From positions 3,033 to 67,032 of the forward strand of contig JAKPEG010000068.1 in the NCBI GenBank assembly GCA_029552065.1: a stretch of 64,000 nucleotides of DNA, written 5' to 3'. The notes under the pieces are model-generated. The model saw only the letters and a program-made list of their open reading frames with translations. It made no database searches and was not told where the DNA came from. Made by a program: the position numbers and the translations under genes. Source of the stretch: Actinomycetes bacterium (GTDB taxonomy: Bacteria; Actinomycetota; Actinomycetes; Actinomycetales; Dermatophilaceae). Positions 1-64,000 of this stretch are shown here, piece by piece (position 1 is the stretch's first letter; every line of letters starts with the position of its first letter).

Positions 1-705
1 GTGGCGCGCCTCGGCCTCGGCCGAGTATGCCGGCAGATCGGCCATCGTATAGCCGTGTGCCGCACCGGAATAGAGCTCGCCCCGGAAGTCGCAGCCGGCG
101 TCGGCAGCAGCGGCGGCGAAGGTGTCCTGGGCGTCGATCGGCATGGACGGATCGGCGTCGGCATAGCCGAAGTAGAGCCTGGCCCGCACCTTCGGCAGGA
201 GCTGGTGCGGGCTCTGCGGGGAGTCGGTGACGAGGCCACCGGGGTGGAAGCCCGCGACCACCCCGACCCGGTCGGGGCACTGGGCGGCGAGTGCGACGCC
301 GAGTCGCCCGCCCATGCAATAGCCGACCACCCGGGTGGGGGCGTCGGTCACGCGGGCCACCTGCGCCAGCTGGTCGAGGTAGACCGGCCCGTCGGCGGCC
401 CAGAGCGCCGGGGTGAGCGCTGCGATGAGTTCTCCCATCGCCTTGTGCCGGGCGGGAGCCCGCTCGGCGGTGAGCAGCTCCGGGTCGATGAGGGGCTGCC
501 GACCGGCGCGCCAGAAGTGGTTGGGCGCGAGCACGGCCAAGCCCCAGTCGGCGATGCGTTGCGCCATCTGTGCGATCCGCGGGCGCAGCCCGATCGCATC
601 CATGATGAACAGGACGCCTGGATGGGGGCCGGGGTCTTCTGGCAGGGCCAGGAACGCGTCGCACGGGCCATCAGGCATCGGCAGGTCGATCTCCTGGACG
701 GTCAT
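1..705 (-). CDS. dienelactone hydrolase family protein (partial; C-terminus runs off the left edge)
   Basis: Not in the ORF track because there is no stop inside the window. Manual minus-strand translation from ATG 705-703 gives MTVQEIDLPMPDGPCDAFLALPEDPGPHPGVLFIMDAIGLRPRIAQMAQRIADWGLAVLAPN...VVGYCMGGRLGVAL...FGYADADPSMP. It has the G-x-C-x-G nucleophile elbow typical of DLH and high GC3. There is an ATGA start/stop overlap with the upstream MBL gene at 702-705. Confidence 0.8.
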   Translation of the reverse strand, partial: MTVQEIDLPMPDGPCDAFLALPEDPGPHPGVLFIMDAIGLRPRIAQMAQRIADWGLAVLAPNHFWRAGRQPLIDPELLTAERAPARHKAMGELIAALTPALWAADGPVYLDQLAQVARVTDAPTRVVGYCMGGRLGVALAAQCPDRVGVVAGFHPGGLVTDSPQSPHQLLPKVRARLYFGYADADPSMPIDAQDTFAAAAADAGCDFRGELYSGAAHGYTMADLPAYSAEAEARH

Positions 706-1412
706 GTGAGCATGCCCTCTCGACGTAGGAAGCCTCGGATCGCTTCGCGCGGGCGAGTGGCGATCTCCGGACCATGGGTGAAAGCCGCTGTGCGGTAATC
801 GATCTCGGCCAAGCGGAGCGCGGTCCGTTGGCTCATCCGGAAGTTGCTGCAGAAGGCGCGGAACGACCAGCGCAGCCCGAGGACGTTGAAGATCGAGTCG
901 CCCGTGACGAGCGTGGCCGTCGGTTCGTGCAGGTATGCCGCGTGGCCGGGTGAGTGACCGGGCGTGTGGATCACCCGCAGGCCGCCAGCGATCGGGAGCA
1001 ACTCGCCGTCGTGCAATTCCTGTCCCACCTCGACCGCGTGGAAAGGCGTGCGGTCGACCCGGGCGAGCAGGCGACCCAGCCGCGAGTCCCGCGGGGTGTT
1101 CGTGCCGGTCCGCGCGTAGTGGGCGTCGTCGGCGTGGACGGCGACCGTGCGGCCGGTCGCCGCGGCGACCGCCGCCGCACCACCCGCGTGGTCCTGGTGG
1201 GCATGGGTGAGCAGCAGCCGGGTGACGTCCGAGGGCCCGGATCCGATCGCGGTGAGCGCGGCGAGCACCTTGGGGGCCGAGCGCGGGAGGCCCATGTCGA
1301 GGACGGTCACCTGCCCGTCATCGTCGCGCAGGAGGAAACCGTTGACGACGTCGCCCACGAGTCGCACCCGCCAGATCCCCGGCGCGAGCGGGACGACGAG
1401 CGGCCCGGCCAT
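702..1412 (-). CDS. MBL-fold metallo-hydrolase
   Basis: This is the last 236 aa of track ORF 702..1877 (MAGPLVVPLAPGIWRV...). It carries the HxHxDH motif (THAHQDHAGG) and a later PGHSPGH. ATG at 1412 overlaps the stop of the upstream gene (ATGA). The Arg/Pro-rich N-terminal part of the track ORF looks like non-coding read-through. Confidence 0.88.
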   Translation of the reverse strand: MAGPLVVPLAPGIWRVRLVGDVVNGFLLRDDDGQVTVLDMGLPRSAPKVLAALTAIGSGPSDVTRLLLTHAHQDHAGGAAAVAAATGRTVAVHADDAHYARTGTNTPRDSRLGRLLARVDRTPFHAVEVGQELHDGELLPIAGGLRVIHTPGHSPGHAAYLHEPTATLVTGDSIFNVLGLRWSFRAFCSNFRMSQRTALRLAEIDYRTAAFTHGPEIATRPREAIRGFLRREGMLT

Positions 1413-2089
1413 CAGAGGGGGTCCAATTCTGGGGCGCCGAGCCGGGTGAGTTCGCGGTCGAGGTTGACCCGGGCCCGCGGCTCCCACTCCGAGCGCGCGT
1501 GGTCGGTGCGGTAGATCCGGTCGCGGCCGGCGAAGGTGCGCAGCAGGTGAGCGCGCCCGGCGCGGTATGCCGCGTCCGGCACGAAGGAATACTCGGCCCG
1601 CACCTGCCCGCAGTAGGCGTCGAACCGGTCGGGTTCGGCGGACAGGATCCACAGGTCGGCGTCGTGGAAGCAGCGGCCGGCGTCGGCCGGCGCCTCGGCC
1701 GCATCGCTGTGGGCGGCGGTCATGAGCACGAGCGACTCGACGGCGTCGACGTCCGCGTGGTCGAGGTCGAGGCCGGGCAACACGGCCCGGGCGAGCAGTG
1801 CGCTGTCGGCCTCGTTCGCCCCGGCGGGAGCGTCCGCAGCGTAGACGGCGTCGTGGAACCAGCCGGCGAGGCGGCATACCGTCGCGGATCGTTCGCCGAT
1901 TTCGCGCGCGTCCTCGAGCTCCTCAAGCGCCCAGAACACCTCGACGAGGTGGCGGGTGTCGTGGTAGTGCCGGTGTGGCTGACTCCACCGTGCGAGCAGG
2001 TCCGCCCCGGCAGCCTGGACGGCGTCCTCGAAGGCCGTGGGGGCGACGGCGAGCACGTCCTGGGTCCACCAGTGGATGAGCGCCGGCAT
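1412..2089 (-). CDS. uncharacterised HD-superfamily-like metal-dependent phosphohydrolase
   Basis: 225 aa. His/Asp pattern HRHYHDTRH...WFHDAVY...FHDADL. It is the first gene of a three-gene translationally coupled minus-strand unit (2089 to 1). Confidence 0.62.
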   Translation of the reverse strand: MPALIHWWTQDVLAVAPTAFEDAVQAAGADLLARWSQPHRHYHDTRHLVEVFWALEELEDAREIGERSATVCRLAGWFHDAVYAADAPAGANEADSALLARAVLPGLDLDHADVDAVESLVLMTAAHSDAAEAPADAGRCFHDADLWILSAEPDRFDAYCGQVRAEYSFVPDAAYRAGRAHLLRTFAGRDRIYRTDHARSEWEPRARVNLDRELTRLGAPELDPL

Positions 2090-2124
2090 GGGGTCAGTCT
2101 CGCAGACCGGCCGGGCTTCCCAGG

Positions 2125-4164
2125 TCAGCGCAGGGGCTCGGGAAGCTCCCCGGCGTGCACGACGGTGAGGGTCGAGACTGCGCGGGTGAGCACGACATAG
2201 AGCCGACGCAGACCCGTGCGCTCGTCGGGCTCTGCGGCGGCAATGTCGGCGGGTTCCACGACGAGGACCCGGTCGAACTCCAAGCCCTTCGCGACTGTCG
2301 CGGGGACGAGGTCGACCTGGTGCTCGACGTCACCGTGATCGGCGCCAAGGACGCCGTGCCCGATCCCCGCGTTGTCGAGGGCGCGGTGCAGGCCGGCAAT
2401 CGCGCTGTCGGCGGCGATCACGCCGATGGACCCCTCGGCACGGGTCCACTCGGCCACGACGCTGGCCACTGTCGTGGGGAGTTCGGTTGCGGCACAGCGC
2501 TGCACGACAAGTTCTCCCGGGTTGTCGCGGACCGACCGCGGGATCCCAAGGCCGGGAGCCATGTGTGGCAGAAGGCGCGCGGCATAGCCGATGACTTCGG
2601 CCGGCACACGGAAGCCGCGGTCGAGCACCTCGACGTGCGCCTCCGGTTTGCCGAGGTGGGTGAGCGACTCCGTCCAGGAACTCGTCGCCCACGGAGTCGT
2701 GCCCTGGGCGATGTCGCCGAGGACGGTGGCCGAGCCGGTGGAGCAGCGCCGGCCTACGGCCCGCAGGTGCATGGGCGAGAGGTCCTGCGCCTCGTCGAGG
2801 ACGACGTGCCCGAGGCTCGGGGTGCGCTCGAGGAGATCGGCCAGCTCGTCGAGCAGGACGGCGTCGGCGGCCGACCACCTTGCCGATCCTCGTGAGCGGG
2901 GCGGCTTGTCCCACAAGAGGATTTGCTGTTCCTCGGGGGCGAAGAGGTCGCCGGCATGGCGAGCGAGCAGATCCCCGTCGGACAGCAGCCCGGCCAACAT
3001 GGCGCGCGGCTCGACCGGCGGCCACAGCTGCGCGGCATACCGCTGGACGGCGCTGCTGCGGGCGACGGCGTCTTGCACCCGGTCGTCGGGCGAGCCGCCC
3101 GCGCGCTCCATCCCGAGCAGGACGAGGTGAGCGAGGCGCTGGGGCAGCATCGCCCGCGCTGCGCCGTAGCGGACGCCCCGGCCGGCCAGCTCGTCGAGCA
3201 CCTCCTGCACGAGGTATGCCGCGACCCGCCACCGGTGCGCTCCGCGGGGGACGACGAGGGGTTCGTCGGCCGTGCCCACGTGACTCCACACCGCACGGTG
3301 GAGCAGGGTCGCCATCCGCGGGTCGCCCTTGAGGGTTGCCGCGGCGGGGGAGTCGGCGCCGCGCACCGGCACGTGGGCGACCAGGCCGGCCGCGGTCGTG
3401 TGTCTCACCTCCACCTCGCCGAGAGCGGGCAGGACCGCCCCGATGTGGTCGAGGAAGGCGCTGTTGGGGCCGACGACGAGGACGCCCGTCCGGGTGAGTC
3501 GATCGCGATGGGCATAGAGCAGCCACGCGGCTCGGTGCAGTCCGACCGCGGTCTTGCCGGTCCCGGGGGCGCCCTGGACGCAGACGGTCGTGCCGGCGTC
3601 GGCGCGGACGAGGGCGTCCTGTTCGGGCTGGATGGTCGCGACGATGTCGCGCATCGGCCCCACACGTGGACGTTCGATCTCGTCCTGGAGGATCGCGCTG
3701 CGTCGCTCGCCTTCGGTCGGGTCGAGCAGGTGCTCGTCCTCGTATGCCGTGAGCCGGCCACGGTCGACGCCGAACCGGCGCCGCCGGCGCACCCCGAGCG
3801 GGGCGGCGCGGGACGCCCGGTAGAAGGTGGCCGACAGGTCCGCCCGCCAGTCGACGACGACGGGGTCCCCGCGCTCGTCCCGGACGTGGCGCCGCCCGAT
3901 GTACCAGCGCTCGTGTCCCTCGACGTCGTGATCGAGATCCAGCCGTCCGAAGAAGAGGGTTGAGGTGGGGTCGTCGGCGAGGGTGGCGAGGCGGGCGTGG
4001 AGGGTGAGGGCGAGGAATTCGCTGGACACCCGGTCTCCGCCGAGAGGGTTGTCGCGCAGTGCCTCGGTGGCCCGGCGCATCCGGGCCAGCTCGGCACGTG
4101 CGTGGTCGAGATAGCCCTGCTCGGCGGCGAGGTCGGGATCGGGAGGGTGGTCGGGGACGGGCAC
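2125..4164 (-). CDS. helD: HelD/HelR-like UvrD-family (SF1) ATPase, RNA-polymerase-associated
   Basis: 679 aa. Walker A is VQGAPGTGKTAVGLHR, with LDEAQDLSP (motif II-like) and a C-terminal VAKGLEFDRVLVV...RRLYVVLTRA. The N-terminal coiled-coil-like arm (EQGYLDHARAELARMRR) followed by FFGRLD...WYIGRRHV is typical of actinobacterial HelD. GTG start at 4164 is preceded by GGAGG. Confidence 0.82.
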   Translation of the reverse strand: MPVPDHPPDPDLAAEQGYLDHARAELARMRRATEALRDNPLGGDRVSSEFLALTLHARLATLADDPTSTLFFGRLDLDHDVEGHERWYIGRRHVRDERGDPVVVDWRADLSATFYRASRAAPLGVRRRRRFGVDRGRLTAYEDEHLLDPTEGERRSAILQDEIERPRVGPMRDIVATIQPEQDALVRADAGTTVCVQGAPGTGKTAVGLHRAAWLLYAHRDRLTRTGVLVVGPNSAFLDHIGAVLPALGEVEVRHTTAAGLVAHVPVRGADSPAAATLKGDPRMATLLHRAVWSHVGTADEPLVVPRGAHRWRVAAYLVQEVLDELAGRGVRYGAARAMLPQRLAHLVLLGMERAGGSPDDRVQDAVARSSAVQRYAAQLWPPVEPRAMLAGLLSDGDLLARHAGDLFAPEEQQILLWDKPPRSRGSARWSAADAVLLDELADLLERTPSLGHVVLDEAQDLSPMHLRAVGRRCSTGSATVLGDIAQGTTPWATSSWTESLTHLGKPEAHVEVLDRGFRVPAEVIGYAARLLPHMAPGLGIPRSVRDNPGELVVQRCAATELPTTVASVVAEWTRAEGSIGVIAADSAIAGLHRALDNAGIGHGVLGADHGDVEHQVDLVPATVAKGLEFDRVLVVEPADIAAAEPDERTGLRRLYVVLTRAVSTLTVVHAGELPEPLR

Positions 4165-4329: not shown

Positions 4330-6015
4330 ATGTCCGAGATGGCGTTTGAGGCGTTGGAGGCCCTTCCAGGGTCGGTCGACGCGATCGCGCACGCCGACCT
4401 CGGCGAGCTGGGGGAGGCGGTCCTCGGCGCGACCGTCCCAGGGATCGAGGGCTTCTCTCGTGACTGTCTCGAGCGCTACGTCGCGGCGAGCAACCGGGTG
4501 CTCGCCGCGGTGGCGGCACGGCAGGCTGCCGCGGTCGCGGCATATGCGTTGGCGGTCGTCGAAGAGGAGGCCTCCCGCGAGCGCGATCGGCTCGCTCGCT
4601 GGGAGGTGGCCGCCGAGGCGGCCGCCCAGACGGGTATGCCGCGCCCGCACCGTCCGCGCCCGCTCGGCTGCTCCTCGGTCCAGATGGCCGCGGCCTCGCT
4701 CGCGCCGCTGCTTCATGTCGCTCCGCGCACGATGGCCGCACGGATAGGGTCCGCCCTCCTGCTGGGCGAGTTGCCGCGCACCCTGGCATCGGCGCTCGAC
4801 GGACGGCTCGAACCGCATCGGTGGATCCACGTGACTCGGGCGCTCAGCCACGTGGGGATCGAGCGCGGCCAGGAGCTCGAGGCCCGGCTGCACGACCGGG
4901 ACATCGCCGAGCTCTCCGGATCGCAGGTGAAGGCGCGCTGCCAGCGGATCGAGGCGGCGTTCACGGCGCTCGACGCGAGCGTCGAGCGTGCCGCGAAAGC
5001 ACGGCGCATGGTGACCATCGACCCGGCCGACGAGCCGGGGCTCACCGCCTGGTCGGCACTGCTGCCCAGCGAGGACTCGACCCGGATGTGGTCGGCGGTC
5101 GAGGAGTTGGCTCGCGAATACCGGGTCGCCCGAGCGGAGCTCACCGTCGGCCAGTCGCGGGCCGACGCCCTCACCGACCTCGTCCTCGCGCAGGCACGGG
5201 TGAGCTCCGAGGTCGTCCTCGTCGTGGCTGCCGACCGCACAGACGACACCGACGACGCCGACTGCACCGACCGCACAGACGACACCGACCGCACCGACTA
5301 CGCCGACCGCACCGACCGCACCGACCACGCCGACGACGCGTGGCCGGTGGCCACGGGCGCGGTGGACGTGGACACCGAGCTCCCGGCCACGATCCTCGAT
5401 CATCCCCGGCAGCCAGCCGCGGCCCCGGCGCATCGGCCCGGGCTGGCTTGGGTCCCTGAGTCGGCCGCTGGGCCGGCCGCTGAGTCGGCATTGGAGTGGC
5501 GCTGGTTACTCGCCGCCTGCGACTCCGAGGCGGCCGACGCCAACCCGAGGCTCCGGCGCGATCGCGGCGGGTCGGTGTGGTTCGTCCCGGCGGCCGTCAC
5601 CGTGCCGCGGGTCGGCACCATCCTCCCGGAGCACGTGGCAGCGCTGTTGGCCGATCCGGACACCCTGGTCCGCCTCGGCACACGTGACCCCCGGACCGGG
5701 GTCGTCCTGGCGGTCGGCGCCGGCTATCGTCCCGGGGCGAACCTGGCGCGTGCGGTGCGGCTGCGCGATGGGACCTGCCGGTTCCCGGGATGTGCGACGC
5801 CCGCGGAGCGCTGCGACCTCGACCACGTCGTCCCTTGGCCGTGCGGCCGCACCGAGGCGGGCAACCTCGTCGCACTGTGCCGGACCCACCACGGCTTCAA
5901 GCACCACGCAGGGTGGACGCTCGAGCTGGCCGGTGACGGCGAGTGCACGTGGACCGCCCCCACGGGCAGGTCACACCGGACCCGCCCACCAGACCTCGGC
6001 GACCGGGCCGCGTGA
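4330..6015 (+). CDS. DUF222-domain HNH endonuclease (REP13E12-type family)
   Basis: This is the C-terminal 561 aa of track ORF 3997..6015, starting MSEMAFEALEAL. The C-terminal HNH module is RDGTCRFPGCATPAERCDLDHVVPWPCGRTEAGNLVALCRTHHGFKHH. The N-terminal and central part has the usual DUF222 architecture. Confidence 0.85.
   Translation: MSEMAFEALEALPGSVDAIAHADLGELGEAVLGATVPGIEGFSRDCLERYVAASNRVLAAVAARQAAAVAAYALAVVEEEASRERDRLARWEVAAEAAAQTGMPRPHRPRPLGCSSVQMAAASLAPLLHVAPRTMAARIGSALLLGELPRTLASALDGRLEPHRWIHVTRALSHVGIERGQELEARLHDRDIAELSGSQVKARCQRIEAAFTALDASVERAAKARRMVTIDPADEPGLTAWSALLPSEDSTRMWSAVEELAREYRVARAELTVGQSRADALTDLVLAQARVSSEVVLVVAADRTDDTDDADCTDRTDDTDRTDYADRTDRTDHADDAWPVATGAVDVDTELPATILDHPRQPAAAPAHRPGLAWVPESAAGPAAESALEWRWLLAACDSEAADANPRLRRDRGGSVWFVPAAVTVPRVGTILPEHVAALLADPDTLVRLGTRDPRTGVVLAVGAGYRPGANLARAVRLRDGTCRFPGCATPAERCDLDHVVPWPCGRTEAGNLVALCRTHHGFKHHAGWTLELAGDGECTWTAPTGRSHRTRPPDLGDRAA
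5230..5340 (+). repeat. in-frame Asp/Thr/Arg-rich tandem repeat inside the HNH gene
   Basis: It encodes ADRTDDTDDADCTDRTDDTDRTDYADRTDRTDHADD. A 23-nt block ccgaccgcacagacgacaccgac is exactly duplicated at 5231 and 5267 (36-nt period), followed by reiterated cgcaccgac units. Confidence 0.85.
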
Positions 6016-6043: not shown

Positions 6044-7483
6044 TCAGTTCGCGGGGCGGGCCGCGAGCGTGACGGTGACCTCCTGGGTCTGGCTGCCCCG
6101 GACGACCGTGAGCTTGACGGTGTCGCCGACGTTGCGCTGCCGGATGGCCGCGACGAGGGAGAGCGAGCCGTCGACGCGCTTGCCGTCGATGGTCGTGATG
6201 GCGTCGCCCGCCTGCAGACCGGCCTGGGCGGCCGGCGTGCCGTCCGCGACCGACTTCACGACGGCCGCCGCACGTTTGGCGTTGCCGTCGGGCACCGTGC
6301 CGTCGGCGGAGGAGATGCCGAGGTAGGCATGCTGCGCCTTGCCGGTCGAGATGAGCTGGTCGGCGATCGAGACGACCTCGTTGACCGGGATCGCGAAGCC
6401 GATGCCGATGTTGCCGCTCTGCTGGGTCGACGAGCTGCCGAGCGAGGCGATCGAGGAGTTGATGCCGACGAGCTGGCCGTTGGCGGTGACGAGTGCACCC
6501 CCGGAGTTGCCCGGGTTGATCGCAGCCGAGGTCTGGATCGCGTTGGTGACGACCGGTTCGGTGCTGCCGCCGGTCTGGCTCTGGCTGCCACTGGTCCGCA
6601 CCGGCCGATCGAGAGCGCTCACGATGCCCGTCGTCACCGTGCCGGCGAGGCCGAGGGGGTTGCCCACGGCCATGACCGGGTCGCCGACGGCGAGCGTGTC
6701 CGAGTCGCCCACGCTCATCGGGACGAGGTCGCTCGGAGGGTCGGTGATGGTGAGGACGGCCAGGTCGGTCGAAGGGTCGGTTCCAGCGATGGTCGCGTCG
6801 AAGGTGCGCCCGTCGGCGAGGGTGACGGTGATCTCCGCGCCATTGCCGGCACCGGTGGCGACGTGGTTGTTCGTCACGACATGCCCGGCCTTGTCGTAGA
6901 CCACGCCCGAACCTTCACCCTCGCCCGACGAACTCGTCACCGAGATCGCCACGACGCTGGGGGCGACAGCCTCGGCCGTGACCGCCCAGTCGACGGCCGC
7001 CCCGTTCGCCTGGACGACCGGGGCGTCGCGGTTGGTCGACTGCCCGGAAGGTGCGGTGGCCGTCGTCGTCGACGAGGCGGGCCGGGTGAGGGCATAGGTG
7101 CCGCCGCTGGCCAGCCCCGCCGCAAGGACGGCGACGGCGGCCAGCTCGGCGACCCTCCGGCCGGCACCGTGGGGCCGAGCTGGGGAGTGCGCCGCGACCG
7201 GGGTGGGGGGCGCGCCGGGGATGGGCGGCATACCGGCCCCTGTCGGGGCGGCCGGATAGGACGGCCAAGCGGGCGGCGATGCGACCGGCACGGGCTGGGT
7301 GGGTGAGGGGGGCGGGAAGGCCGTAGTGGCCTCGGCCCCGCTCTGCGGACCGGCCGGGGTCGGCGCCCAGGCGGTCACCGGCGGCTCGGCCGAAGCGGGC
7401 GGTGCCGGCGGCACGGGTGGCGTCTCGTAGGCGGCATACCAGGGCTGCTGGGGCTGCTGGGGGGGACGCTGCGGGTCCGTCAT
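6044..7483 (-). CDS. HtrA/PepD-like S1C serine protease with PDZ domain
   Basis: 479 aa. It has a Pro/Gln-rich N-terminus, a TM segment (LAAVAVLAAGLASGG), a trypsin-like core with GNSGGAL, and a C-terminal PDZ (VADGTPAAQAGLQAGDAITTIDGKRV). AAGGAGAG lies upstream of ATG 7483. Confidence 0.9.
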   Translation of the reverse strand: MTDPQRPPQQPQQPWYAAYETPPVPPAPPASAEPPVTAWAPTPAGPQSGAEATTAFPPPSPTQPVPVASPPAWPSYPAAPTGAGMPPIPGAPPTPVAAHSPARPHGAGRRVAELAAVAVLAAGLASGGTYALTRPASSTTTATAPSGQSTNRDAPVVQANGAAVDWAVTAEAVAPSVVAISVTSSSGEGEGSGVVYDKAGHVVTNNHVATGAGNGAEITVTLADGRTFDATIAGTDPSTDLAVLTITDPPSDLVPMSVGDSDTLAVGDPVMAVGNPLGLAGTVTTGIVSALDRPVRTSGSQSQTGGSTEPVVTNAIQTSAAINPGNSGGALVTANGQLVGINSSIASLGSSSTQQSGNIGIGFAIPVNEVVSIADQLISTGKAQHAYLGISSADGTVPDGNAKRAAAVVKSVADGTPAAQAGLQAGDAITTIDGKRVDGSLSLVAAIRQRNVGDTVKLTVVRGSQTQEVTVTLAARPAN

Positions 7484-7602: not shown

Positions 7603-8010
7603 GTGATCACGCTCGAGCTCGCCCGGCGCCTCCGCGAGGCGGGTATGCCGTGGACCCCGGCTTCGGGGGACCGCTTCGTCGTGGGCCGTCCGGGGATGGA
7701 GGACGAGGTCTTCGTCCTCGCCGACATGCTCGCCGAGGTGCACGACTTCGTCGACGGTGCGGTCGTGGGCTTCAACGGGACCGTCGAATGGGCCCTGGAC
7801 TCCGTCGCACTCGCCGAGGTCGTCTGGCTGCCGCGCGAGGAACAGCTGCGCGAGGCGTTGGGTGGGTCCTTCGAGCGGTTGGAAGCGGTCACCGGGGGCT
7901 TCGTCGTCGTCACCCGGTCGCCGGACGGGCAGGTGACCACCCGGCATACCGACCTCGACCCGGAGCGCGCCTATGCGCGGGCGGTGCTCGCCAAGCTCAC
8001 CGGGTCCTGA
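7603..8010 (+). CDS. hypothetical protein
   Basis: GTG at 7603 (VITLELARRLREAGMPWTPASGDRFVV...), 135 aa, with high GC3. The start choice within track ORF 7402..8010 is uncertain. No family recognised. Confidence 0.5.
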   Translation: MITLELARRLREAGMPWTPASGDRFVVGRPGMEDEVFVLADMLAEVHDFVDGAVVGFNGTVEWALDSVALAEVVWLPREEQLREALGGSFERLEAVTGGFVVVTRSPDGQVTTRHTDLDPERAYARAVLAKLTGS

Positions 8011-8028: not shown

Positions 8029-8955
8029 GTGGCGGTCATGGGGAACCTCGACATGCGGGCATGGGCGCAGCGTGTCGCGCCCCTGTGGCTGGTCTGGGTC
8101 CTCTACCTGACGCCGGTCGGCTGGCTCTGGTCGCTGTGGTTGGCCGCCCAGAACGGCGCTGCGATGGTCGGCGGCAGCCGCACCTACGACGAGTACGGCA
8201 ATCTGGTCGGCTCGACCGCCGCGGACACCCCGGGGATCCTCGCCGAGTTGGTCATGGTGCTCTCTTTCGGCTACTACCAGCCGGTGCCGGTCGACGTGGT
8301 CCTGCTGTCCCTGGGCTTCGCTGCGACGGTTCTGGCCATTCATCTGCCGCGGGTCGGCCGCCGGAAGGTGCGACCGCCAGCAGCAGTGGGTGCGCTGCTG
8401 GCCGCAGGACCGGTGCTGCTGGCTGTCGCGGTCCTCGCCGTGGGCGACTCCGCGGTGGACGCGTTCGCGCCGCAGATCAGCGCCACCGAGGCACACTGGC
8501 TGTGGACGTCGACTCTCCGCTTCGTCGTGCCGGCGATGGTGTCTGTGCCGCTCGGGTGGATTCTCCTGCGGATCGGCTGGGGGCCGCCGCCGTCGAGGGT
8601 CACGCCCGGGGCCGAGGGGACCGTCGGGGAGGACTCGGAGGCGTCGGAGCCGTTCGCCACCACGGCAGCGGAGGCGGACGCCGACCACGAGGCCGACCCG
8701 GTCGCGCCCGCACCGTCCCGCGCCGAGGCCCAGCCGCTGCCCGAGGGTGAGCTCGAGGCACGTGGGTGGGACCGGCGACCGGAGTTGCCGGCCGACTTCC
8801 GGGCGCCCGCTGCCGGTGCCTCGCCCTATGAGCGCCCCTCGCCGACCCGGGCCGGTGCCGGGCCGGACGGGCTGCCCGGTGCCAGGGAAGAGGGGGCCGA
8901 CCCCTCGGCACTCGACCCGCTCGCGGCATACCGCCGCCCGCGCGCCGACGGCTAG
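8029..8955 (+). CDS. hypothetical integral membrane protein with acidic/Pro-rich C-terminal tail
   Basis: 308 aa with several hydrophobic segments (LWLVWVLYLTPVGWLWSLWLAA; VVLLSLGFAATVLAI; LLAAGPVLLAVAVLAV). Its stop TAG (8953-8955) overlaps the convergent XPB stop (CTAG). Confidence 0.55.
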   Translation: MAVMGNLDMRAWAQRVAPLWLVWVLYLTPVGWLWSLWLAAQNGAAMVGGSRTYDEYGNLVGSTAADTPGILAELVMVLSFGYYQPVPVDVVLLSLGFAATVLAIHLPRVGRRKVRPPAAVGALLAAGPVLLAVAVLAVGDSAVDAFAPQISATEAHWLWTSTLRFVVPAMVSVPLGWILLRIGWGPPPSRVTPGAEGTVGEDSEASEPFATTAAEADADHEADPVAPAPSRAEAQPLPEGELEARGWDRRPELPADFRAPAAGASPYERPSPTRAGAGPDGLPGAREEGADPSALDPLAAYRRPRADG

Positions 8956-10586
8956 AGGTCGTCGGCGTCGACGATGCGGTAGGCGTAGCCCTGCTCGGCG
9001 AGGAAGCGCTGCCGGTGGGCGGCGAAGTCGGCGTCGACCGTGTCCCGGGAGACGATCGTATAGAAGTGCGCGGTGCGGCCGTCGACCTTGGGCCGCAGCA
9101 GGCGGCCGAGCCGCTGGGCCTCCTCCTGGCGTGAGCCAAAGGTGCCCGACACCTGGACCGCCACCGAGGCTTCGGGCAGGTCGATCGAGAAGTTCGCGAC
9201 CTTGCTCACGACGAGCACGGGCACCTCGCCGGCCCGGAAGGCGTCGAAGAGCCGTTGGCGTTCCCGGACGGTCGTCTCGCCGGTGATGAGGGGGGCGTCC
9301 AATCGGCCTGCAAGGGTGGCGAGTTGGTCGAGATACTGGCCGATGACGAGGGCGGGCTCGCCGGTATGCCGCGCGAGCAGGCGTTCGACGACTCGGTCCT
9401 TCTCCGTCGTGCAGCTCGCGAGCCGGTAGCGCTCGTCCGGCTCGGCCATCGCATAGACGAGCCGCTCCCGCTCGGGCACCGTCACTCGCACCTCGACACA
9501 GTCGGCCGGGGCGATCCACCCCTGGGCCTCGATGTCCTTCCACGGGGCGTCGAAGCGTTTGGGCCCGATGAGCGAGAAGACGTCGGACTCGCGGCCGTCC
9601 TCGCGCACGAGGGTGGCGGTGAGGCCGAGTCGACGGCGTGCCTGCAGATCGGCGGTCATCCGGAAGATCGGTGCCGGCAACAGGTGGACCTCGTCGTAGA
9701 CGATGAGCCCCCAGTCGCGGGCGTCGAGCAGTTCCAGGTGCGGATAGGCACCCTTCCGGCGGACCGTGAGGACCTGATACGTCGCTATCGTCACCGGTCG
9801 GATGTCCTTGCGGGCACCGGAGTACTCGCCGATCTCCGCCTCGGTCAACGAGGTACGGCGCAGGAGTTCGTCGCGCCACTGCCGGGCTGCGACCGTGTTG
9901 GTCACGAGGACGAGGGTCGTCGCCTGGGCCTGCGCCATGGCAGCCGCCCCGACGATCGTCTTGCCCGCCCCACACGGGAGCACGACGACGCCCGAGCCGC
10001 CGTGCCAGAAGCTCTCCGCCGCGTGCCGCTGATAGGACCGCAGCGCCCAGCCCTCCTCCCGCAGCGCGATCGGGTGGGCCTCGCCGTCGACGTAGCCGGC
10101 GAGGTCCTCGGCCGGCCAGCCGATCTTGAGCAATGCCTGCTTGAGGTGTCCCCGCTCGGACGGGTGGACGAGCACCGTGTCGGCGTCTATCCGGGCACCG
10201 AGCAGCGGCTGGATCCGCTTGTGCCGCAACACTTCCTCGAGCACGGGTCGGTCCGAGGTGTGCAGGACCAGGCCGTGGACGGGGTCCTTCTCGAGGGTGA
10301 GCCGCCCATAGCGCGACATCGTGTCGGCGATGTCGACGAGCAACGCCTGGGGGACGGCATAGCGGCTGTGCCGCAGAAGGGCGTCGACGACCTGCTCGGC
10401 ATCGTGGCCCGCGGCCCGGGCGTTCCACAGGCCCAGGGGCGTCACGCGATAGGTGTGCACGTGCTCGGGGGCGCGTTCCAACTCGGCGAAAGGCGCGACG
10501 TCGCGCCGCGCCTGCTCGGCCTGCGGGTGGTCGACTTCGAGGAGCAGGGTCTTGTCGCTCTGGACGATGAGGGGGCCGTCGGTCAT
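8952..10586 (-). CDS. xpb: XPB/Ssl2/ERCC3-type SF2 DNA helicase
   Basis: 544 aa. The N-terminal damage-recognition-like domain begins MTDGPLIVQSDKTLLLEVDHP. Walker A is VVLPCGAGKT, the DEAH-type box is VYDEVHLL, followed by GLTATLVRED and a C-terminal RecA2 domain. It resembles the mycobacterial XPB architecture. Confidence 0.92.
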   Translation of the reverse strand: MTDGPLIVQSDKTLLLEVDHPQAEQARRDVAPFAELERAPEHVHTYRVTPLGLWNARAAGHDAEQVVDALLRHSRYAVPQALLVDIADTMSRYGRLTLEKDPVHGLVLHTSDRPVLEEVLRHKRIQPLLGARIDADTVLVHPSERGHLKQALLKIGWPAEDLAGYVDGEAHPIALREEGWALRSYQRHAAESFWHGGSGVVVLPCGAGKTIVGAAAMAQAQATTLVLVTNTVAARQWRDELLRRTSLTEAEIGEYSGARKDIRPVTIATYQVLTVRRKGAYPHLELLDARDWGLIVYDEVHLLPAPIFRMTADLQARRRLGLTATLVREDGRESDVFSLIGPKRFDAPWKDIEAQGWIAPADCVEVRVTVPERERLVYAMAEPDERYRLASCTTEKDRVVERLLARHTGEPALVIGQYLDQLATLAGRLDAPLITGETTVRERQRLFDAFRAGEVPVLVVSKVANFSIDLPEASVAVQVSGTFGSRQEEAQRLGRLLRPKVDGRTAHFYTIVSRDTVDADFAAHRQRFLAEQGYAYRIVDADDL

Positions 10587-44537: not shown

Positions 44538-44900
44538 TCAGTCTGGCCTGGGCACGGCGATGACGACGAGCAACCGGGCATCGTCGGTGGACTCGTTGTC
44601 CACGCTGCGGACGGTGCCGCGTGGCATGTGCGCCGAGTCGCCGGCATACAGCGTGGTGGTGGTCTGCGTGTCGCCGTCCGTGACTCGCAGGACGAGTTCG
44701 CCTGCAAGACACACGTAGACGGTCTCGGCTGCGGTCGGTGCCGTGAGCGCGCGCGAGCCCGGCGGATAGACCGAATTCCCGACCCAGAAGGCCTCGGTCG
44801 GCCCCGCCTCGATCCCCTGCAGCCGGTTGGTCACCACCCCTTCGTGCAGGGGAGCGACGTATGCCGGTGCCTCGGCCGCCCGGGTGATCCGCGCGGCCAT
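44538..44900 (-). CDS. cupin domain protein
   Basis: 120 aa (MAARITRAAEAPAYVAPLHEG...VYVCLAGELVLRV...LYAGDSAHMPRGTVRSV). ATGA overlap with the cyclase gene. Confidence 0.72.
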   Translation of the reverse strand: MAARITRAAEAPAYVAPLHEGVVTNRLQGIEAGPTEAFWVGNSVYPPGSRALTAPTAAETVYVCLAGELVLRVTDGDTQTTTTLYAGDSAHMPRGTVRSVDNESTDDARLLVVIAVPRPD

Positions 44901-53281: not shown

Positions 53282-53388
53282 GTCGATCCGGGCCGAGGTG
53301 CGCGGCCGTGGCGGGGAGCACCGCCTCGGTGCGCTATTCGCGGCGCGGTAGCGGGCGGCATACCGGATGGGCGACGTAGGCTCGACCC

Positions 53389-55643: not shown

Positions 55644-56744
55644 TCAGCCCAGCCGGAGTTGGCCTGTGACCGCCCAGAAACGGGCGCGGAGGGCGTGCCG
55701 AGAGGCCTCGTCCACGTCGTAGCTTCCGGTGCGGCTGGTGAGGTCGACGAGCAGGGCCCGGTCCAGGTCGCCGGGAATGGACGGTTCACCCTTGCGCAGG
55801 TCGACCAGGTGTTGCGGGGTCGCGGTGGCCAGCCAGGATTCGACCACCCGCTGGACGACCTGGTCGATGAGCCGGGGCGAGACCGGCTCGTGTTCGTCCG
55901 GTAACGGCACCGCCCCACCATTCGACGGCGAGGCTGCCGAGGGGGCGACGATCTTGGTCGGACGGCGGCTCGCGAGCACCGCCGGAGAGGGGGCGCCTCG
56001 TGCGGCGTCAGCCGAGTCAGAATGCGCGGCAACGAGATCGGGCGACGCCTTGTCGTCCCCGCAGGGCGCTGACGGCTGCCGGAAGTCCGCGGTGGCAGGG
56101 ACCTCCGTTGACGTGTCGGGGCTCACCGGCTCGGGAACCTCGTCTGCGTCCGACGGCTCGGTCACGGTGGCCCGGACGAGTTCGTCTGGGATTGCGGCCG
56201 GACGGACCGAGGAGTCGATCGTCGCGGTGTCGATGAGGACGACCTCGTCGGCGGCCCGCTGCAGGTGACGGGCCACCGACGAGGGGCGGCCCGCGGCATC
56301 CGGCACGGCGAGCACGAGCAGTTGGATCCCGTGACTCTGCGCCTCCTCGACCGCCTCCGTGAGGTCGTCGTCGCCGGAGACCAGGTAGATGAGGTCGACG
56401 ACCCGGTTGCGGCCATGGGTGGCAAGATCGAGACCGATCTTGAGGTCGACGCCCTTCTGCTCGCCCTGGTAGGACGTCCGGCCGAGCCGCAACTTCACGC
56501 GGGGCATGAGGCCGATCGCGTCCTGGCCGGCATCCGGCATACCTCCTGGGCGGGCACCGGCGTCGTACCAGTGGACCCGCAGGAGCGGCAGGCCGCTCTC
56601 CCGCTCGGCCTGGGCGATGAGCCCACGGATGAGGGCGTGGGTGTCGACCTGGACGCCACGGCGCAGCGAGGTGCCGGTCACCCGGGTCGCGGAGGCGGCC
56701 AGCAGGTAGCCGGCGTCGACGAAGATGGCGCAGTGCGGCCGCAT
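55644..56744 (-). CDS. NYN-domain (LabA-like) protein with long C-terminal extension
   Basis: 366 aa. The N-terminal 170 aa (AIFVDAGYLL...GVDLKIGLDL...LVSGDDDLTEAVEEAQSHG) match the PIN-like NYN RNase fold. The remainder is low-complexity plus a conserved-looking C-terminal module. Confidence 0.83.
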   Translation of the reverse strand: MRPHCAIFVDAGYLLAASATRVTGTSLRRGVQVDTHALIRGLIAQAERESGLPLLRVHWYDAGARPGGMPDAGQDAIGLMPRVKLRLGRTSYQGEQKGVDLKIGLDLATHGRNRVVDLIYLVSGDDDLTEAVEEAQSHGIQLLVLAVPDAAGRPSSVARHLQRAADEVVLIDTATIDSSVRPAAIPDELVRATVTEPSDADEVPEPVSPDTSTEVPATADFRQPSAPCGDDKASPDLVAAHSDSADAARGAPSPAVLASRRPTKIVAPSAASPSNGGAVPLPDEHEPVSPRLIDQVVQRVVESWLATATPQHLVDLRKGEPSIPGDLDRALLVDLTSRTGSYDVDEASRHALRARFWAVTGQLRLG

Positions 56745-57229: not shown

Positions 57230-59782
57230 CTAGAGGCGAGGGTCGACCGGCTCGGATTCGAGCGCCAGCACCGCGAAGACGCGTTGGTGGACCTTCCACA
57301 GCGGCTCGTGGTCGACGAAGCCGACCAGCGCGTCGAGGCCCAGCCCGTGCTCACGCTGGGCGAGCTGACGCTTGCGACCCAGGTGGCGCTGGCGCAACAG
57401 GTCGAGCGAATCGGTGTAGTCCGGCCCGTAGATGATCCGCAGATACTCCCGGCCGCGCACCTTGAGCCCGGGCTGGACCCGGCCTCGGGCGTGCCCGACC
57501 GGCCCGGCCGGCTTGACGACCATGCCCTCGCCGCCTGCCGCGGTGAGCCCCAGCCACCAGGTCACGGCAGCAGCCCGCTCGTCAGGAGAGGCCAGCTCGA
57601 CGAATCGGTGCCGAGTGGGGGTGATGAGCGGGTCGTCGAGGGTCGCCAGCTGGGCCAGGTGCCAGTCGTGCCGCTCGCTCACCGCGAGCGCGCGGCCCTG
57701 CGCGGCCAGGATCTGGAAGGGCGCGAGGGTGATCCCGTCGAGTCCCTCGCTCGGCCGGCAGTATGCCGTGTAGGCGTCGCGGAAGGCCGTCGCGTCGGTG
57801 AGTCGGGTCTGGGTGCGGGCGGTCAGCTCGGCGACGTCGAGACCGCGCCGGCTCGCCTGGTCGAGCGCGTCGAGGGCGGCGGGCAGTGCGTGGCGTGCGG
57901 CCGCACCCACGGAGGCGTACTGGTTCTTGATGAGATCCAGGGCTTTGGCCGACCAGGGCAGCAGCTCGCAGTCCAACACCAGCCAGTCGCTGTCCAGCCG
58001 CTCGAACAACGGGGCGACGGCCCCGCGCAGCCGGTCGACCAAGGGTGCGGTGTCGGCGAAGAAGGGCCGCCCGGTGCGGGTGTAGACCACCCCGGTGCAC
58101 CCGTCGTCGACACCGAAGCGCAGCCGGGCGGTCTCGGGGTCCCGCGCGAGCACGGCGATCGCTCGGGAGCCCATGTGCTTCTCCTCGCACACCACCCGGG
58201 TGAGGCCCCACGCGGCATACTCCTCGAACGCCTGCTCGGGGTGCTCGAGGAAGCCGTCGAGCGACGACGCGGCTGCCGGTGACATGGTCGGCGGCAGGTA
58301 GACGAGCCAGCGCGGGTCCACCGCGAAGCGGCTCATCACCTCGAGCGCGGCTGCGGCGTTGTCCTCGGGGATCTTCACCTTGCCGGCGTGGGTCGTCGTG
58401 AGCCATCGGGTGCCGGCGACGTCGTCGATCGCCAGGACGGACGGCTCGCGTTCGGCGGCCTGGGGAGTGAGGGGCCGGGCCGGTTCGTACCACTGCTGCT
58501 CGGCGGGCACCGAGACGAGCTCGCGCTCGGGGTAGCGCAGCGCGGTGAGCGAGCCGCCGAAGACGGCGCCGGTGTCGAGACAGATGGTGTTGTTGACCCA
58601 TTCCGCACGCGGCACCGGGGTGTGGCCGTAGGCGACGAGGGCGCTGCCGCGGTAGTCGCGTGCCCACGGGTAGCGCACCGGCAGGCCGTAGTCGTCGGTC
58701 TCGCCGGTGGTGTCGCCGTAGAGGGCGAAGGCTCGTACTCGGCCGGAGGAGCGGCCCTGGTAGCTCTCCTTGAGGCCTGCGTGGGCGACGACCAGTCGCC
58801 CGCCGTCCAGCACGTAGTGGCTGATCAGCCCGTCCATGAACGCGAGCGCGGCGTCACGGACGTCGGCCGGCTGCGCCTCGATCTGGGCCAGCGACTCGGC
58901 CAGCCCGTGGGAGACGCGCACCTTGGCGCCCTTGAGCGCGCGGACGAGCTTGACCTCGTGGTTGCCGGAGACGCACAGGGCGGTGCCGGCCGCGACCATG
59001 CCCATGACCAGCCGCAGCACCCCGGGGGTGTCGGGCCCCCGGTCGACGAGGTCGCCGACGAAGACCGCCTGGCGCCCGGCCGGGTGGCTGGCCCCGACGG
59101 CGACCTCTCCGTCGAGCTCGAGCTCCCAGCCGAGGGCGGTGAGCAGGCTGCGCAGCTCGGAGGCGCAGCCGTGGACGTCGCCGATGATGTCGAACGGCCC
59201 GGTCAGCTCGGTGCGGTCGTTCCACGGCCGCTCGCGCTCGATGCGGGCAGCGGCGATCTCCTCGACCCCGCGCAGCACGTGCACCCGGCGGAAGCCCTCC
59301 TTGCCGAGCCGGCGGATCGAGCGGGCCAGGTCGCGGCTCTGCCGGGCCACCACGTGGTCGCCGAAGTCGCGGTCCGGGCGCTGCCGGTTGCGTGCGGTCG
59401 CCACCTGCTCGGGCACGTCGAGGACGATGGCGTCGACGAGCACGTCGTGCGACTTGGCCAGCGCGACGAGCGCCGCCCGCGACTGCTGCTGGACGTTGGT
59501 CGCGTCGACGACGGCCAGGAGCCCGCGGCGCAGTCGGGTGCCGACGATGAAGTGCAGCACGTCGAAGGCGTCGGGGGTCGCCGACTGGTCGTTCTCGTCG
59601 TCCGCGACCAGACCGCGGCAGACGTCGCTCGAGATGACCTCGGTCGGCGCGAAGTGTTCGCGCGCGAAGGTCGACTTGCCGCTGCCGGACACGCCGACCA
59701 GCACGACCAGGCCCCTCGCGGGGATCCGCAGCGGAGGCCGCTCTTCGGGCCGGTCGCTGCTCGCCCGGCTGGTTTCAGACAC
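57230..59782 (-). CDS. pnkp: polynucleotide kinase-phosphatase (bacterial Pnkp: kinase, metallophosphatase, ligase-like adenylyltransferase)
   Basis: 850 aa from GTG 59782, overlapping the hen1 stop by 8 nt. The P-loop kinase is VVLVGVSGSGKSTF. The calcineurin-type phosphatase has GDVHGC...GDLVDRGPD...GNHE...GHTP. The C-terminal domain has the lysine motif EEKHMGSRA. Confidence 0.9.
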   Translation of the reverse strand: MSETSRASSDRPEERPPLRIPARGLVVLVGVSGSGKSTFAREHFAPTEVISSDVCRGLVADDENDQSATPDAFDVLHFIVGTRLRRGLLAVVDATNVQQQSRAALVALAKSHDVLVDAIVLDVPEQVATARNRQRPDRDFGDHVVARQSRDLARSIRRLGKEGFRRVHVLRGVEEIAAARIERERPWNDRTELTGPFDIIGDVHGCASELRSLLTALGWELELDGEVAVGASHPAGRQAVFVGDLVDRGPDTPGVLRLVMGMVAAGTALCVSGNHEVKLVRALKGAKVRVSHGLAESLAQIEAQPADVRDAALAFMDGLISHYVLDGGRLVVAHAGLKESYQGRSSGRVRAFALYGDTTGETDDYGLPVRYPWARDYRGSALVAYGHTPVPRAEWVNNTICLDTGAVFGGSLTALRYPERELVSVPAEQQWYEPARPLTPQAAEREPSVLAIDDVAGTRWLTTTHAGKVKIPEDNAAAALEVMSRFAVDPRWLVYLPPTMSPAAASSLDGFLEHPEQAFEEYAAWGLTRVVCEEKHMGSRAIAVLARDPETARLRFGVDDGCTGVVYTRTGRPFFADTAPLVDRLRGAVAPLFERLDSDWLVLDCELLPWSAKALDLIKNQYASVGAAARHALPAALDALDQASRRGLDVAELTARTQTRLTDATAFRDAYTAYCRPSEGLDGITLAPFQILAAQGRALAVSERHDWHLAQLATLDDPLITPTRHRFVELASPDERAAAVTWWLGLTAAGGEGMVVKPAGPVGHARGRVQPGLKVRGREYLRIIYGPDYTDSLDLLRQRHLGRKRQLAQREHGLGLDALVGFVDHEPLWKVHQRVFAVLALESEPVDPRL

Positions 59783-61172
59783 GGGTGAACACCGCAAGCT
59801 GGGTCGGCGCGCCGAACTCGGGGTCTGCGTCGCCGACGCCGCGCAGCTGCACGGCATACCCGTATGCCGTGGCCACCGCCGCGGTCCAGGCGGCGAACTC
59901 GGCGCGGTCCCACTCGAAGCGGTGGTCGGGGTGGCGCAGGCCGCGCAGGCTCTCGTAGCGGACGTTGTAGTCCCGGTTGGGGGTGGTGACGACGACGGTG
60001 CCTGGAGTGGCGGCACCGAAGACGACCCGTTCGAGGGCGGGCAGGCGGGAGGGGTCGACGTGCTCGATGACCTCCATGAGGACAGCCGCGTCGTAGCCGG
60101 CGAAGCGTGGGTCCTCGTAGGTGAGGGCGCCCTGGAAGAGGGTGACCCGCGCGGTCTGGCGCTCGCTCATCCGGTCAAGGCGGAGGCGCCGGGCGGCATA
60201 CTGCAGGCTGCGGGTCGAGACGTCGCTGCCGGCGATCCGGGTGAAAGCCGGTGTGCCGACAAGGCGCTGGAGGAACTGCCCGGGCCCGCAACCGAGGTCG
60301 ATGACCGAGGCGGCGCCGGCAGCTTCGAGGGCATCGAGGACCGCGTCATGGCGCTGGGCGTTGAGCGGGACGCGTCGCTCCTGAGGCTGCAGCGCCTCCT
60401 CGTCGTCGGCAGGTTCGAGCGCCTCCTCGGTCGCGTCGTCGAGCTCGGCGAGCCGGGCCAGGGCCACGCGGGTGAGAGCGCCGTGCCGGCCGAGGTAGCG
60501 GTGGGTGATGAGGTCGCGGTCGGGGTGGTCGGCGAGCCAACCGCCGCCGGAGCGCAGCAGCTTGTCCACCTCGTCGGGCCCCTGCCAGTAGTGCTTGGAC
60601 TCGTCGAGGACTGGAAGCAGGACGTGCAGCTGGCTGAGCGCGTCGGCCAGGCGGATCGTGCCGGTCAGCTGCAGGTGCACGTAGCGGGACTGGCCCCATT
60701 CCGGGAAGGCGTCGTCAAGGGCGATCGGCTCGGCGTCGACCTGCCAGCCCAGCGGCTCGAAGACCCGCCGGGCGATCTCCGGGCCGCCGCGGCACGGCAG
60801 GACGGGCAGGCGGAGCTGCAGCGGGATCGCGCTGTCGGCCAACTCCTGGCGGGAGGTGCACCGGCCCGACCGCGCGGTGCTGAAGACGTCGGCGAGGGCG
60901 ACCGCGAGCAGGGACGACGCGGCATACGAACGGTCGTTGACGTATTGCGCGAGGCTGAAGTCGGGGGAGGTGCGCGAGCGGGAGCGCGCCATCCGGACCG
61001 GGTCGATCTCGAGCATGAGCGTGGCAATGCAGCGCTCGTCACTCGCCTCGGGGTAGAAAACCGTTGCGACACCGAAGGATTGCGTGAATCGCTGCACGCG
61101 GTCAGGGTGCTTGTGCAGCAGATGACCCAGGTCGGTCGCCGGGGTGTGCGTGGTGGTGATACTGAGCAACAC
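59775..61172 (-). CDS. hen1: bacterial Hen1 3'-terminal RNA ribose 2'-O-methyltransferase
   Basis: 465 aa from GTG 61172 (VLLSITTTHTPATDLGHLLHKHPDRVQ...). The C-terminal SAM-MTase has VIDLGCGPGQF and MEVIEHVD. It is translationally coupled to pnkp. Confidence 0.9.
   Translation of the reverse strand: MLLSITTTHTPATDLGHLLHKHPDRVQRFTQSFGVATVFYPEASDERCIATLMLEIDPVRMARSRSRTSPDFSLAQYVNDRSYAASSLLAVALADVFSTARSGRCTSRQELADSAIPLQLRLPVLPCRGGPEIARRVFEPLGWQVDAEPIALDDAFPEWGQSRYVHLQLTGTIRLADALSQLHVLLPVLDESKHYWQGPDEVDKLLRSGGGWLADHPDRDLITHRYLGRHGALTRVALARLAELDDATEEALEPADDEEALQPQERRVPLNAQRHDAVLDALEAAGAASVIDLGCGPGQFLQRLVGTPAFTRIAGSDVSTRSLQYAARRLRLDRMSERQTARVTLFQGALTYEDPRFAGYDAAVLMEVIEHVDPSRLPALERVVFGAATPGTVVVTTPNRDYNVRYESLRGLRHPDHRFEWDRAEFAAWTAAVATAYGYAVQLRGVGDADPEFGAPTQLAVFTRV
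59851..59870. repeat. perfect palindrome formed by two facing GTATGCCG octamers inside hen1
   Basis: The palindrome is CACGGCATAC-CC-GTATGCCGTG, with 10-nt arms. It encodes ATAYGYAV on the minus strand. Confidence 0.9.
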
Positions 61173-61279
61173 GGGGTCAGTCTGCCCGAGGCGGGTATGC
61201 CGTTTCGCGCCGATTAGCCTGGGCTTTGGGGTCGGGAAATCTGTTCCTGTCGACGCGGGCGGGCGGCTACGGTGCGAGC

Positions 61280-62071
61280 ATGCCCGATCGGCCGAATGTC
61301 GAATACGGCGACCGCGCGGTGGCACTGCCCAACGAGATCCTGCGCTCGGTCGTCGGCAGTGGCGTGCACGGGATCGCGATCGCCGGCACCGACGACCACG
61401 ACGAGATGGGCGTCTACATCGAGCCACCGGCATACGTGCTTGGGGTCGAACGGCATCGTGAGGACTTCATCTGGCGGACCCAGCCCGAGGGGGTGCGCAG
61501 CGGGCATGGCGACACCGACCTGGTGCTCTATTCGCTGCACAAATACCTGCGCCTGGCGGTCAAGGGCAACCCGACGGTGATGATCCCGCTCTTCGCGCCG
61601 GAGGAGTCCTTGGTCGTCGTGACCGAGCTGGGGCGGGAGCTGCGGGCCCTGCGCGCGGCGTTCCTCTCGCAGGTGGCGGTGCAGCGCTTCCTCGGCTATA
61701 TGCACTCCCAGCACGAGCGGATGCTGGGCGGGGGGTCGGGAGGCCGGGCGCCGAACCGGCCCGAGTTGGTCGAGCGATTCGGCTGGGACGTCAAGTACGG
61801 CAGCCACGCGCTGCGGCTGGCCTACCAGGGGCACGAGATCGCCGCCGAGGGCACGCTCACGTTGCCACTGCCCGAGCCGCAGCGTGAGCGGGTGCTCGCG
61901 GTCAAACGCGGCGAGGTGGCTCGTGATGAGGTGTCCGCGGAGATCGCGGACTATGAGGTGCGGGTTCGTCGGGTGCTCGAGACCGGTGCTTCGCCGCTGC
62001 CCGAGGTCGCCGACCTGGACGCCATCTCCGACTGGGCGATCAGTGCGCAGCGCCGACACTGGGGTTGGTAG
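61280..62071 (+). CDS. RlaP-like (DNA-polymerase-beta-superfamily) nucleotidyltransferase, divergent from hen1-pnkp
   Basis: 263 aa from ATG 61280. The sequence GSGVHGIAIAGTDDHDEMGVYIEPP matches the G-S-x-hG...D-x-D NTase motif of the predicted-nucleotidyltransferase family linked to RNA-repair loci. The family call is from memory of that motif and the context. Confidence 0.65.
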   Translation: MPDRPNVEYGDRAVALPNEILRSVVGSGVHGIAIAGTDDHDEMGVYIEPPAYVLGVERHREDFIWRTQPEGVRSGHGDTDLVLYSLHKYLRLAVKGNPTVMIPLFAPEESLVVVTELGRELRALRAAFLSQVAVQRFLGYMHSQHERMLGGGSGGRAPNRPELVERFGWDVKYGSHALRLAYQGHEIAAEGTLTLPLPEPQRERVLAVKRGEVARDEVSAEIADYEVRVRRVLETGASPLPEVADLDAISDWAISAQRRHWGW

Positions 62072-62430: not shown

Positions 62431-62503
62431 TGCCCCCGGCGCGAATCGAACGCGCGACACCCGCTTTAGGAGAGCGGTGCTCTATCCCCTGAGCTACGAG
62501 GGC
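62431..62503 (-). tRNA. tRNA-Arg (anticodon CCU)
   Basis: Minus-strand sequence: GCCCTCGTAGCTCAGGGGATAGAGCACCGCTCTCCTAAAGCGGGTGTCGCGCGTTCGATTCGCGCCGGGGGCA. It has a 7-bp acceptor stem (one G-U), a D-loop AGCTCAGGGGATAGAGC, anticodon loop CUCCUAA and a GTTCGATTC T-loop. CCA is not encoded. Confidence 0.92.
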
Positions 62504-62793
62504 GGGGAGCCCGTATGCCGTGCGCCGGGCCGTCGTCAAGGGTAGCCCGTCGCCGCCTGGTCCCTCACGGCCACGGACAGCCACGGACAGGCCATCGGGC
62601 GGGCCGGCGTCGGCCGAGGAGATGCGGACCGAGACAGGGGGTACGAGAACCTGAGAGTCTGCACCGCCACCCGGTGCACACTCTCAGGAAGTCAGACCCC
62701 CTCATGTCCCCCCGGACCCGCCGCGCGCGGACGCAAGCCCGCAACCGGGCGCGGCGGCTCGGTTCGCGCGCCCGGACTAGTTAGCCTGACCGG

Positions 62794-64000
62794 GTGAGCG
62801 TCGCGGAGGCCATTGCGGGATGGGCTCGGGAGCTGTCGGAGGTCGGCGGCCCCAACACCCTGCTGTGGGCACCCGAGCGGCGCGACGGCTTCCTCGACCT
62901 CTCGACGGCCCATCCCGGCGGGGTCTCGATGCTCCTGGCCGGGCGGCCGACGAGCCTGTCCGACCTCGTCCGCGAGCCGGCGGCCTTCGAGGAGGCGCGC
63001 GAGGTCGCCCGCCGGATCCACGCGGCCGCCGCGGACCTGCTCGCGGAGCGGGGCCTCGTCGCCGGCTTCGTCGCCATCGGCGTCGCGACCTGGGATCCGC
63101 CGCGCGCCCGCGCCGTCGTCGAGGCACCCGTCCTGTTGCGCCCGTGCCGCCTGCGGCCGGTGAGCGCGGCGGAGGCCGACTTCGACCTCGACCTCGGGCC
63201 GACCGTCGAGGTCAACCCGGCGCTGGTCACCTACCTGCGCTCCGTCGCGGGCATCGAGATCGACCCGGTCGCGCTCGCCGGCCTCACCGCGCTGCGCCCG
63301 AACGCAGGTCACGGTTCGCAGGCCGCCGGTTTCGACCCCTACCCCGTGTATGCCGCCCTCGGTCGCCTCTGCGCCGACCTGCCCGGCTTCGCGGTGAGCC
63401 CTCGACTCGTCGTGGGCAGCTACCCCTACGCCAAGCCCGACATGGTGGCCGACGTCGGCGGTCACACGGCCTGGCTGGCCAAGGTCGACGTGGTCGCCGC
63501 GCTCGCCAGCGACCCGGAGGCCACCCGCCGACTTGCCCACGCCCTGCCCGATCCGGTCGCCGACGCCGATCCCGAGCAGGAGCTCACCCCGCTGCCGCTC
63601 GACCCGGTCCAGGCGGCCGCGGTCTCCGACGCACAGGCCGGGCGATCCCACGTCCTCACCGCACCGCTCGGCACCGGCCGCACGCAGACCCTCGCCGCCC
63701 TCGTGGCGGCCGCCGCGTACACCGGCCGGCGCGTCCTCTACGTCACCCCACGCCGCGCTAGCCTCGATGCGCTGGTGGAGCGGCTCGGGCGCCTCGGCCT
63801 GGGCGATCTCGTCCTCGACCTCACCGGCGCGGGAGCGGACCGCAGTGCGGTCGCAGCCGAGCTGAGCATCGCCCTCGAACGGCTGGCCGAGCTCGACGAC
63901 TCCACCCTCGCCCGGCAGGCCGAGCCGGCCGGCCGGGTCGCCCGGGCGACCGAGGCCGCCGAACGTCAGGACGTCCTGGCCGAACACGTCGCCGCCGTGC
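62794..64000 (+). CDS. DUF4011/Upf1-like SF1 helicase family protein (partial; continues past the right edge)
   Basis: Not in the ORF track because there is no stop inside the window. Manual translation from GTG 62794 gives VSVAEAIAGWARELSEVGGPNTLLWAPERRDGFLDLSTAHPGGVSMLLAGRPTSLSDLVREP...SYPYAKPDMVAD...LDPVQAAAVSDAQAGRSHVLTAPLGTGRTQTLAALVAAA. That is 402 uninterrupted codons with very high GC3 and a P-loop-like APLGTGRTQT. Confidence 0.72.
   Translation, partial: MSVAEAIAGWARELSEVGGPNTLLWAPERRDGFLDLSTAHPGGVSMLLAGRPTSLSDLVREPAAFEEAREVARRIHAAAADLLAERGLVAGFVAIGVATWDPPRARAVVEAPVLLRPCRLRPVSAAEADFDLDLGPTVEVNPALVTYLRSVAGIEIDPVALAGLTALRPNAGHGSQAAGFDPYPVYAALGRLCADLPGFAVSPRLVVGSYPYAKPDMVADVGGHTAWLAKVDVVAALASDPEATRRLAHALPDPVADADPEQELTPLPLDPVQAAAVSDAQAGRSHVLTAPLGTGRTQTLAALVAAAAYTGRRVLYVTPRRASLDALVERLGRLGLGDLVLDLTGAGADRSAVAAELSIALERLAELDDSTLARQAEPAGRVARATEAAERQDVLAEHVAAV

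Follow-up and report, generated by a model that had tools for sequence, protein, structure and literature searches.

A hyperabundant octamer in Dermatophilaceae DNA as a candidate self-recognition signal

The window, which is the whole 64-kb stretch of DNA analyzed here (G+C 71.7%), carries genes, including those for HelD/HelR-like, XPB helicase, citrate synthase, Pnkp and Hen1 proteins, together with a tRNA gene and a c-di-AMP riboswitch, and through all of these runs the word GTATGCCG. A machine recount yielded 67 copies, 37 on the plus and 30 on the minus strand, at a density of approximately 1 per kb in both directions and in genes and spacers alike; the sequence-only reading had given the same total, and each coordinate it listed was reproduced. 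The copies are as follows (coordinates, strand, context, codons and residues).

25..32, +, antisense, CDS 1-705(-), CCG-GCA-TAC (P-A-Y)
933..940, +, antisense, CDS 702-1412(-), GCG-GCA-TAC (A-A-Y)
1565..1572, +, antisense, CDS 1412-2089(-), GCG-GCA-TAC (A-A-Y)
1872..1879, -, sense, CDS 1412-2089(-), GTA-TGC-CGC (V-C-R)
3033..3040, -, sense, HelD/HelR-like CDS 2125-4164(-), CGG-TAT-GCC-GCG (R-Y-A-A)
3214..3221, +, antisense, CDS 2125-4164(-), GCG-GCA-TAC (A-A-Y)
3742..3749, +, antisense, CDS 2125-4164(-), ACG-GCA-TAC (T-A-Y)
4634..4641, +, sense, CDS 4330-6015(+), GGT-ATG-CCG (G-M-P, rare GGT)
7226..7233, -, sense, protease CDS 6044-7483(-), GGT-ATG-CCG (G-M-P)
7432..7439, -, sense, CDS 6044-7483(-), TGG-TAT-GCC-GCC (W-Y-A-A)
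7643..7650, +, sense, CDS 7603-8010(+), GGT-ATG-CCG (G-M-P)
7942..7949, -, antisense, CDS 7603-8010(+), CGG-CAT-ACC (R-H-T, rare CAT)
8924..8931, -, antisense, CDS 8029-8955(+), GCG-GCA-TAC (A-A-Y)
9364..9371, +, antisense, XPB helicase CDS 8952-10586(-), CGG-CAT-ACC (R-H-T)
10935..10942, +, antisense, CDS 10611-10964(-), CCG-GCA-TAC (P-A-Y)
10953..10960, +, antisense, CDS 10611-10964(-), GCG-GCA-TAC (A-A-Y)
12384..12391, -, sense, CDS 12316-14637(-), CTG-TAT-GCC-GTG (L-Y-A-V)
12874..12881, +, antisense, CDS 12316-14637(-), ACG-GCA-TAC (T-A-Y)
14220..14227, -, sense, CDS 12316-14637(-), CGG-TAT-GCC-GCG (R-Y-A-A)
14654..14661, +, non-coding, divergent intergenic region
15364..15371, -, antisense, CDS 15210-15968(+), CCG-GCA-TAC (P-A-Y)
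15488..15495, +, sense, CDS 15210-15968(+), CCG-TAT-GCC-GCG (P-Y-A-A)
17460..17467, +, antisense, CDS 17168-18295(-), CGG-CAT-ACC (R-H-T)
17557..17564, -, sense, CDS 17168-18295(-), CGG-TAT-GCC-GGC (R-Y-A-G)
22703..22710, +, non-coding, divergent intergenic region
23845..23852, -, antisense, CDS 23346-24647(+), GCG-GCA-TAC (A-A-Y)
24263..24270, +, sense, CDS 23346-24647(+), TCG-TAT-GCC-GTG (S-Y-A-V)
25318..25325, -, sense, CDS 24675-25811(-), GTA-TGC-CGC (V-C-R)
26190..26197, +, sense, AbmR-like CDS 25991-26812(+), GGT-ATG-CCG (G-M-P)
27271..27278, +, antisense, citrate synthase CDS 26842-27987(-), GCG-GCA-TAC (A-A-Y)
28314..28321, +, non-coding
28388..28395, -, non-coding
28967..28974, +, sense, CDS 28497-29180(+), CGG-TAT-GCC-GCT (R-Y-A-A)
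29539..29546, -, antisense, CDS 29496-30716(+), GCG-GCA-TAC (A-A-Y)
29996..30003, +, sense, CDS 29496-30716(+), GCG-TAT-GCC-GTC (A-Y-A-V)
32044..32051, +, non-coding, inverted pair left arm, 28 bp past stop of CDS 30685-32016
32060..32067, -, non-coding, inverted pair right arm
32044..32067, no strand, hairpin-forming pair GTATGCCG-N8-CGGCATAC between gene end and c-di-AMP riboswitch (32191-32357)
33192..33199, -, antisense, CDS 33092-33766(+), GCG-GCA-TAC (A-A-Y)
34592..34599, +, sense, CDS 34149-35042(+), GGG-TAT-GCC-GCC (G-Y-A-A)
34752..34759, -, antisense, CDS 34149-35042(+), CGG-CAT-ACC (R-H-T)
36178..36185, +, antisense, CDS 35863-36327(-), ACG-GCA-TAC (T-A-Y)
36510..36517, -, sense, CDS 36376-38094(-), GAG-TAT-GCC-GCC (E-Y-A-A)
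38757..38764, +, antisense, CDS 38196-39053(-), GCG-GCA-TAC (A-A-Y)
39307..39314, +, antisense, CDS 39046-39837(-), GCG-GCA-TAC (A-A-Y)
39651..39658, -, sense, CDS 39046-39837(-), CGG-TAT-GCC-GCG (R-Y-A-A)
42866..42873, +, antisense, CDS 42138-42956(-), AAC-GGC-ATA-CAG (N-G-I-Q, very rare ATA)
43294..43301, -, sense, CDS 42953-43627(-), GCG-TAT-GCC-GCG (A-Y-A-A)
44642..44649, -, sense, CDS 44538-44903(-), CTG-TAT-GCC-GGC (L-Y-A-G)
44859..44866, +, antisense, CDS 44538-44903(-), CCG-GCA-TAC (P-A-Y)
45789..45796, +, antisense, ABC ATPase CDS 45727-47451(-), CGC-GGC-ATA-CCT (R-G-I-P, ATA)
47428..47435, -, sense, CDS 45727-47451(-), GGT-ATG-CCG (G-M-P)
47940..47947, +, antisense, CDS 47448-48404(-), CCG-GCA-TAC (P-A-Y)
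49710..49717, -, sense, CDS 49324-50568(-), CAG-TAT-GCC-GAG (Q-Y-A-E)
51806..51813, +, antisense, CDS 51506-52342(-), ACG-GCA-TAC (T-A-Y)
53356..53363, -, non-coding, 26 bp upstream of CDS 53389-54144
53882..53889, +, sense, CDS 53389-54144(+), GGT-ATG-CCG (G-M-P)
56535..56542, -, sense, NYN-domain CDS 55644-56744(-), GGT-ATG-CCG (G-M-P)
57761..57768, +, antisense, Pnkp CDS 57230-59704(-), ACG-GCA-TAC (T-A-Y)
58213..58220, -, sense, Pnkp CDS, GAG-TAT-GCC-GCG (E-Y-A-A)
59852..59859, -, sense, Hen1 CDS 59775-61172(-), GGG-TAT-GCC-GTG (G-Y-A-V)
59862..59869, +, antisense, Hen1 CDS, ACG-GCA-TAC (T-A-Y)
60194..60201, -, sense, Hen1 CDS, CAG-TAT-GCC-GCC (Q-Y-A-A)
60920..60927, -, sense, Hen1 CDS, TCG-TAT-GCC-GCG (S-Y-A-A)
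61195..61202, +, non-coding, divergent intergenic region
61428..61435, -, antisense, CDS 61226-62071(+), CCG-GCA-TAC (P-A-Y)
62513..62520, +, non-coding, tRNA gene 62431-62503(-) 5' end 10 bp away
63348..63355, +, sense, CDS 62794-63999(+), GTG-TAT-GCC-GCC (V-Y-A-A)

One hundred dinucleotide-preserving shuffles produced a mean of 1.05 copies (maximum 5), and Markov models of orders 0-3 predict 2.2, 1.1, 1.9 and 3.4; the 67 observed also lie well clear of the 15 below which the excess was to be doubted. Despite its three A/T bases, GTATGCCG ranks second by frequency among all 8-mers of the window and, singletons apart, is the top outlier against the order-3 model, and its one-mismatch neighbors remain near background (6 copies of CTATGCCG, 2 of GTATGCCC). 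Orders 4, 5 and 6 give 19, 45 and 64; these expectations are high only because the sub-words are nearly all copies of the word itself (GTATG 89%, GTATGCC 97% and TATGCCG 89% of occurrences), and the maximal-order Markov check proposed earlier is therefore uninformative here. Repeat elements and adapter contamination were excluded as explanations.

Within genes, 58 copies were observed against 3.5 ± 1.7 (maximum 8) in synonymous-codon resampling, which kept all proteins and drew codons at the frequencies of the window itself, inflated as these already are; codon bias is thereby ruled out as the source of the excess, as the sequence-only reading had argued, and peptide motifs were also excluded. 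All six reading frames are used, again as proposed: Tyr-Ala 20, Ala-Tyr 23, Gly-Met-Pro 7, Arg-His-Thr 4, Val-Cys-Arg 2 and Gly-Ile (ATA) 2. The rare codons that produce the word differ by frame (TAT, GCA, GGT, CAT, ATA), and amino-acid changes contribute as well; at the 9364 site in the XPB helicase gene, most orthologues lacking the word have R-H-R (CGG-CAC-CGC type), 18 of 21 in the alignment. Because the frames are reached through such different routes, the favored unit is the whole GTATGCCG word and no single mutable base. Since separate positions of the word are driven in separate frames, a simple deamination or single-mismatch repair hotspot is refuted, and with it the simplest form of the repair or methylation option raised earlier. 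Its broader form, methylation-linked biased repair, is a possible rival explanation; the C-variant family GTACGNCG is depleted, which is a hint of such a mechanism. Another rival is a selected binding site of the HIP1 type.

Non-coding DNA carries the word at approximately twice the density found in genes, with nine copies in the window; the six listed earlier are genuine, and 14654, 28314 and 28388 complete the set. The pair at 32044..32067 is shaped like a terminator stem, although no run of T comes after it, and the copies at 59852 (-) and 59862 (+) form a divergent pair in the Hen1 CDS. Spacing is random, and no polarity by replication strand or transcription strand was found. Across the window and the 11 of 14 related loci with |GC skew| > 0.02, the G-rich and C-rich strands carry 103 and 106 copies, so that a polar signal of the Chi/KOPS type is rejected, now with more data than the initial reading had.

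Hyperabundance of GTATGCCG is a lineage trait. The word is not confined to this contig: every site is kept in 7 independent same-species metagenome assemblies (99.6-99.9% identical), and 23 other Dermatophilaceae/Intrasporangiaceae-type loci, drawn from other genomes and two unrelated regions of the genome, carry it at densities of 0.4-1.9 copies per kb. Interspersed among these are relatives in which its density is close to zero, as it also is in Nocardioides and Cellulomonas. Compared with ordinary 8-mers, orthologous sites of the word are 2.6 times better conserved, and lineages show "dialects", with position 6 relaxed and position 9 T or C.

A few other bacteria recognize their own DNA by self-DNA tags. 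We tentatively regard GTATGCCG as a candidate signal of this kind (probability roughly 0.4), which would serve self-recognition in DNA uptake or transfer and may have spread through transmission bias; judged from sequence patterns, this is the best reading. If it is true, GTATGCCG is possibly the first such signal in a Gram-positive lineage. In the open-access literature searched, we found no report of natural transformation in Intrasporangiaceae, Tetrasphaera or Janibacter, and no description of GTATGCCG or an equivalent in Actinobacteria, in agreement with the earlier statement to that effect. The uptake-signal reading was already suggested at the outset by likeness to DUS/USS, and all pattern-level features examined (density, orientation, frames, dialects, conservation) fit it. 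In keeping with such a signal, GTATGCCG occurs at 1-2 copies per kb, is neutral in orientation and tolerant of reading frame, is in excess in non-coding DNA with some copies in hairpin pairs, and is spread at the family level with dialects, members without the word and conserved positions.

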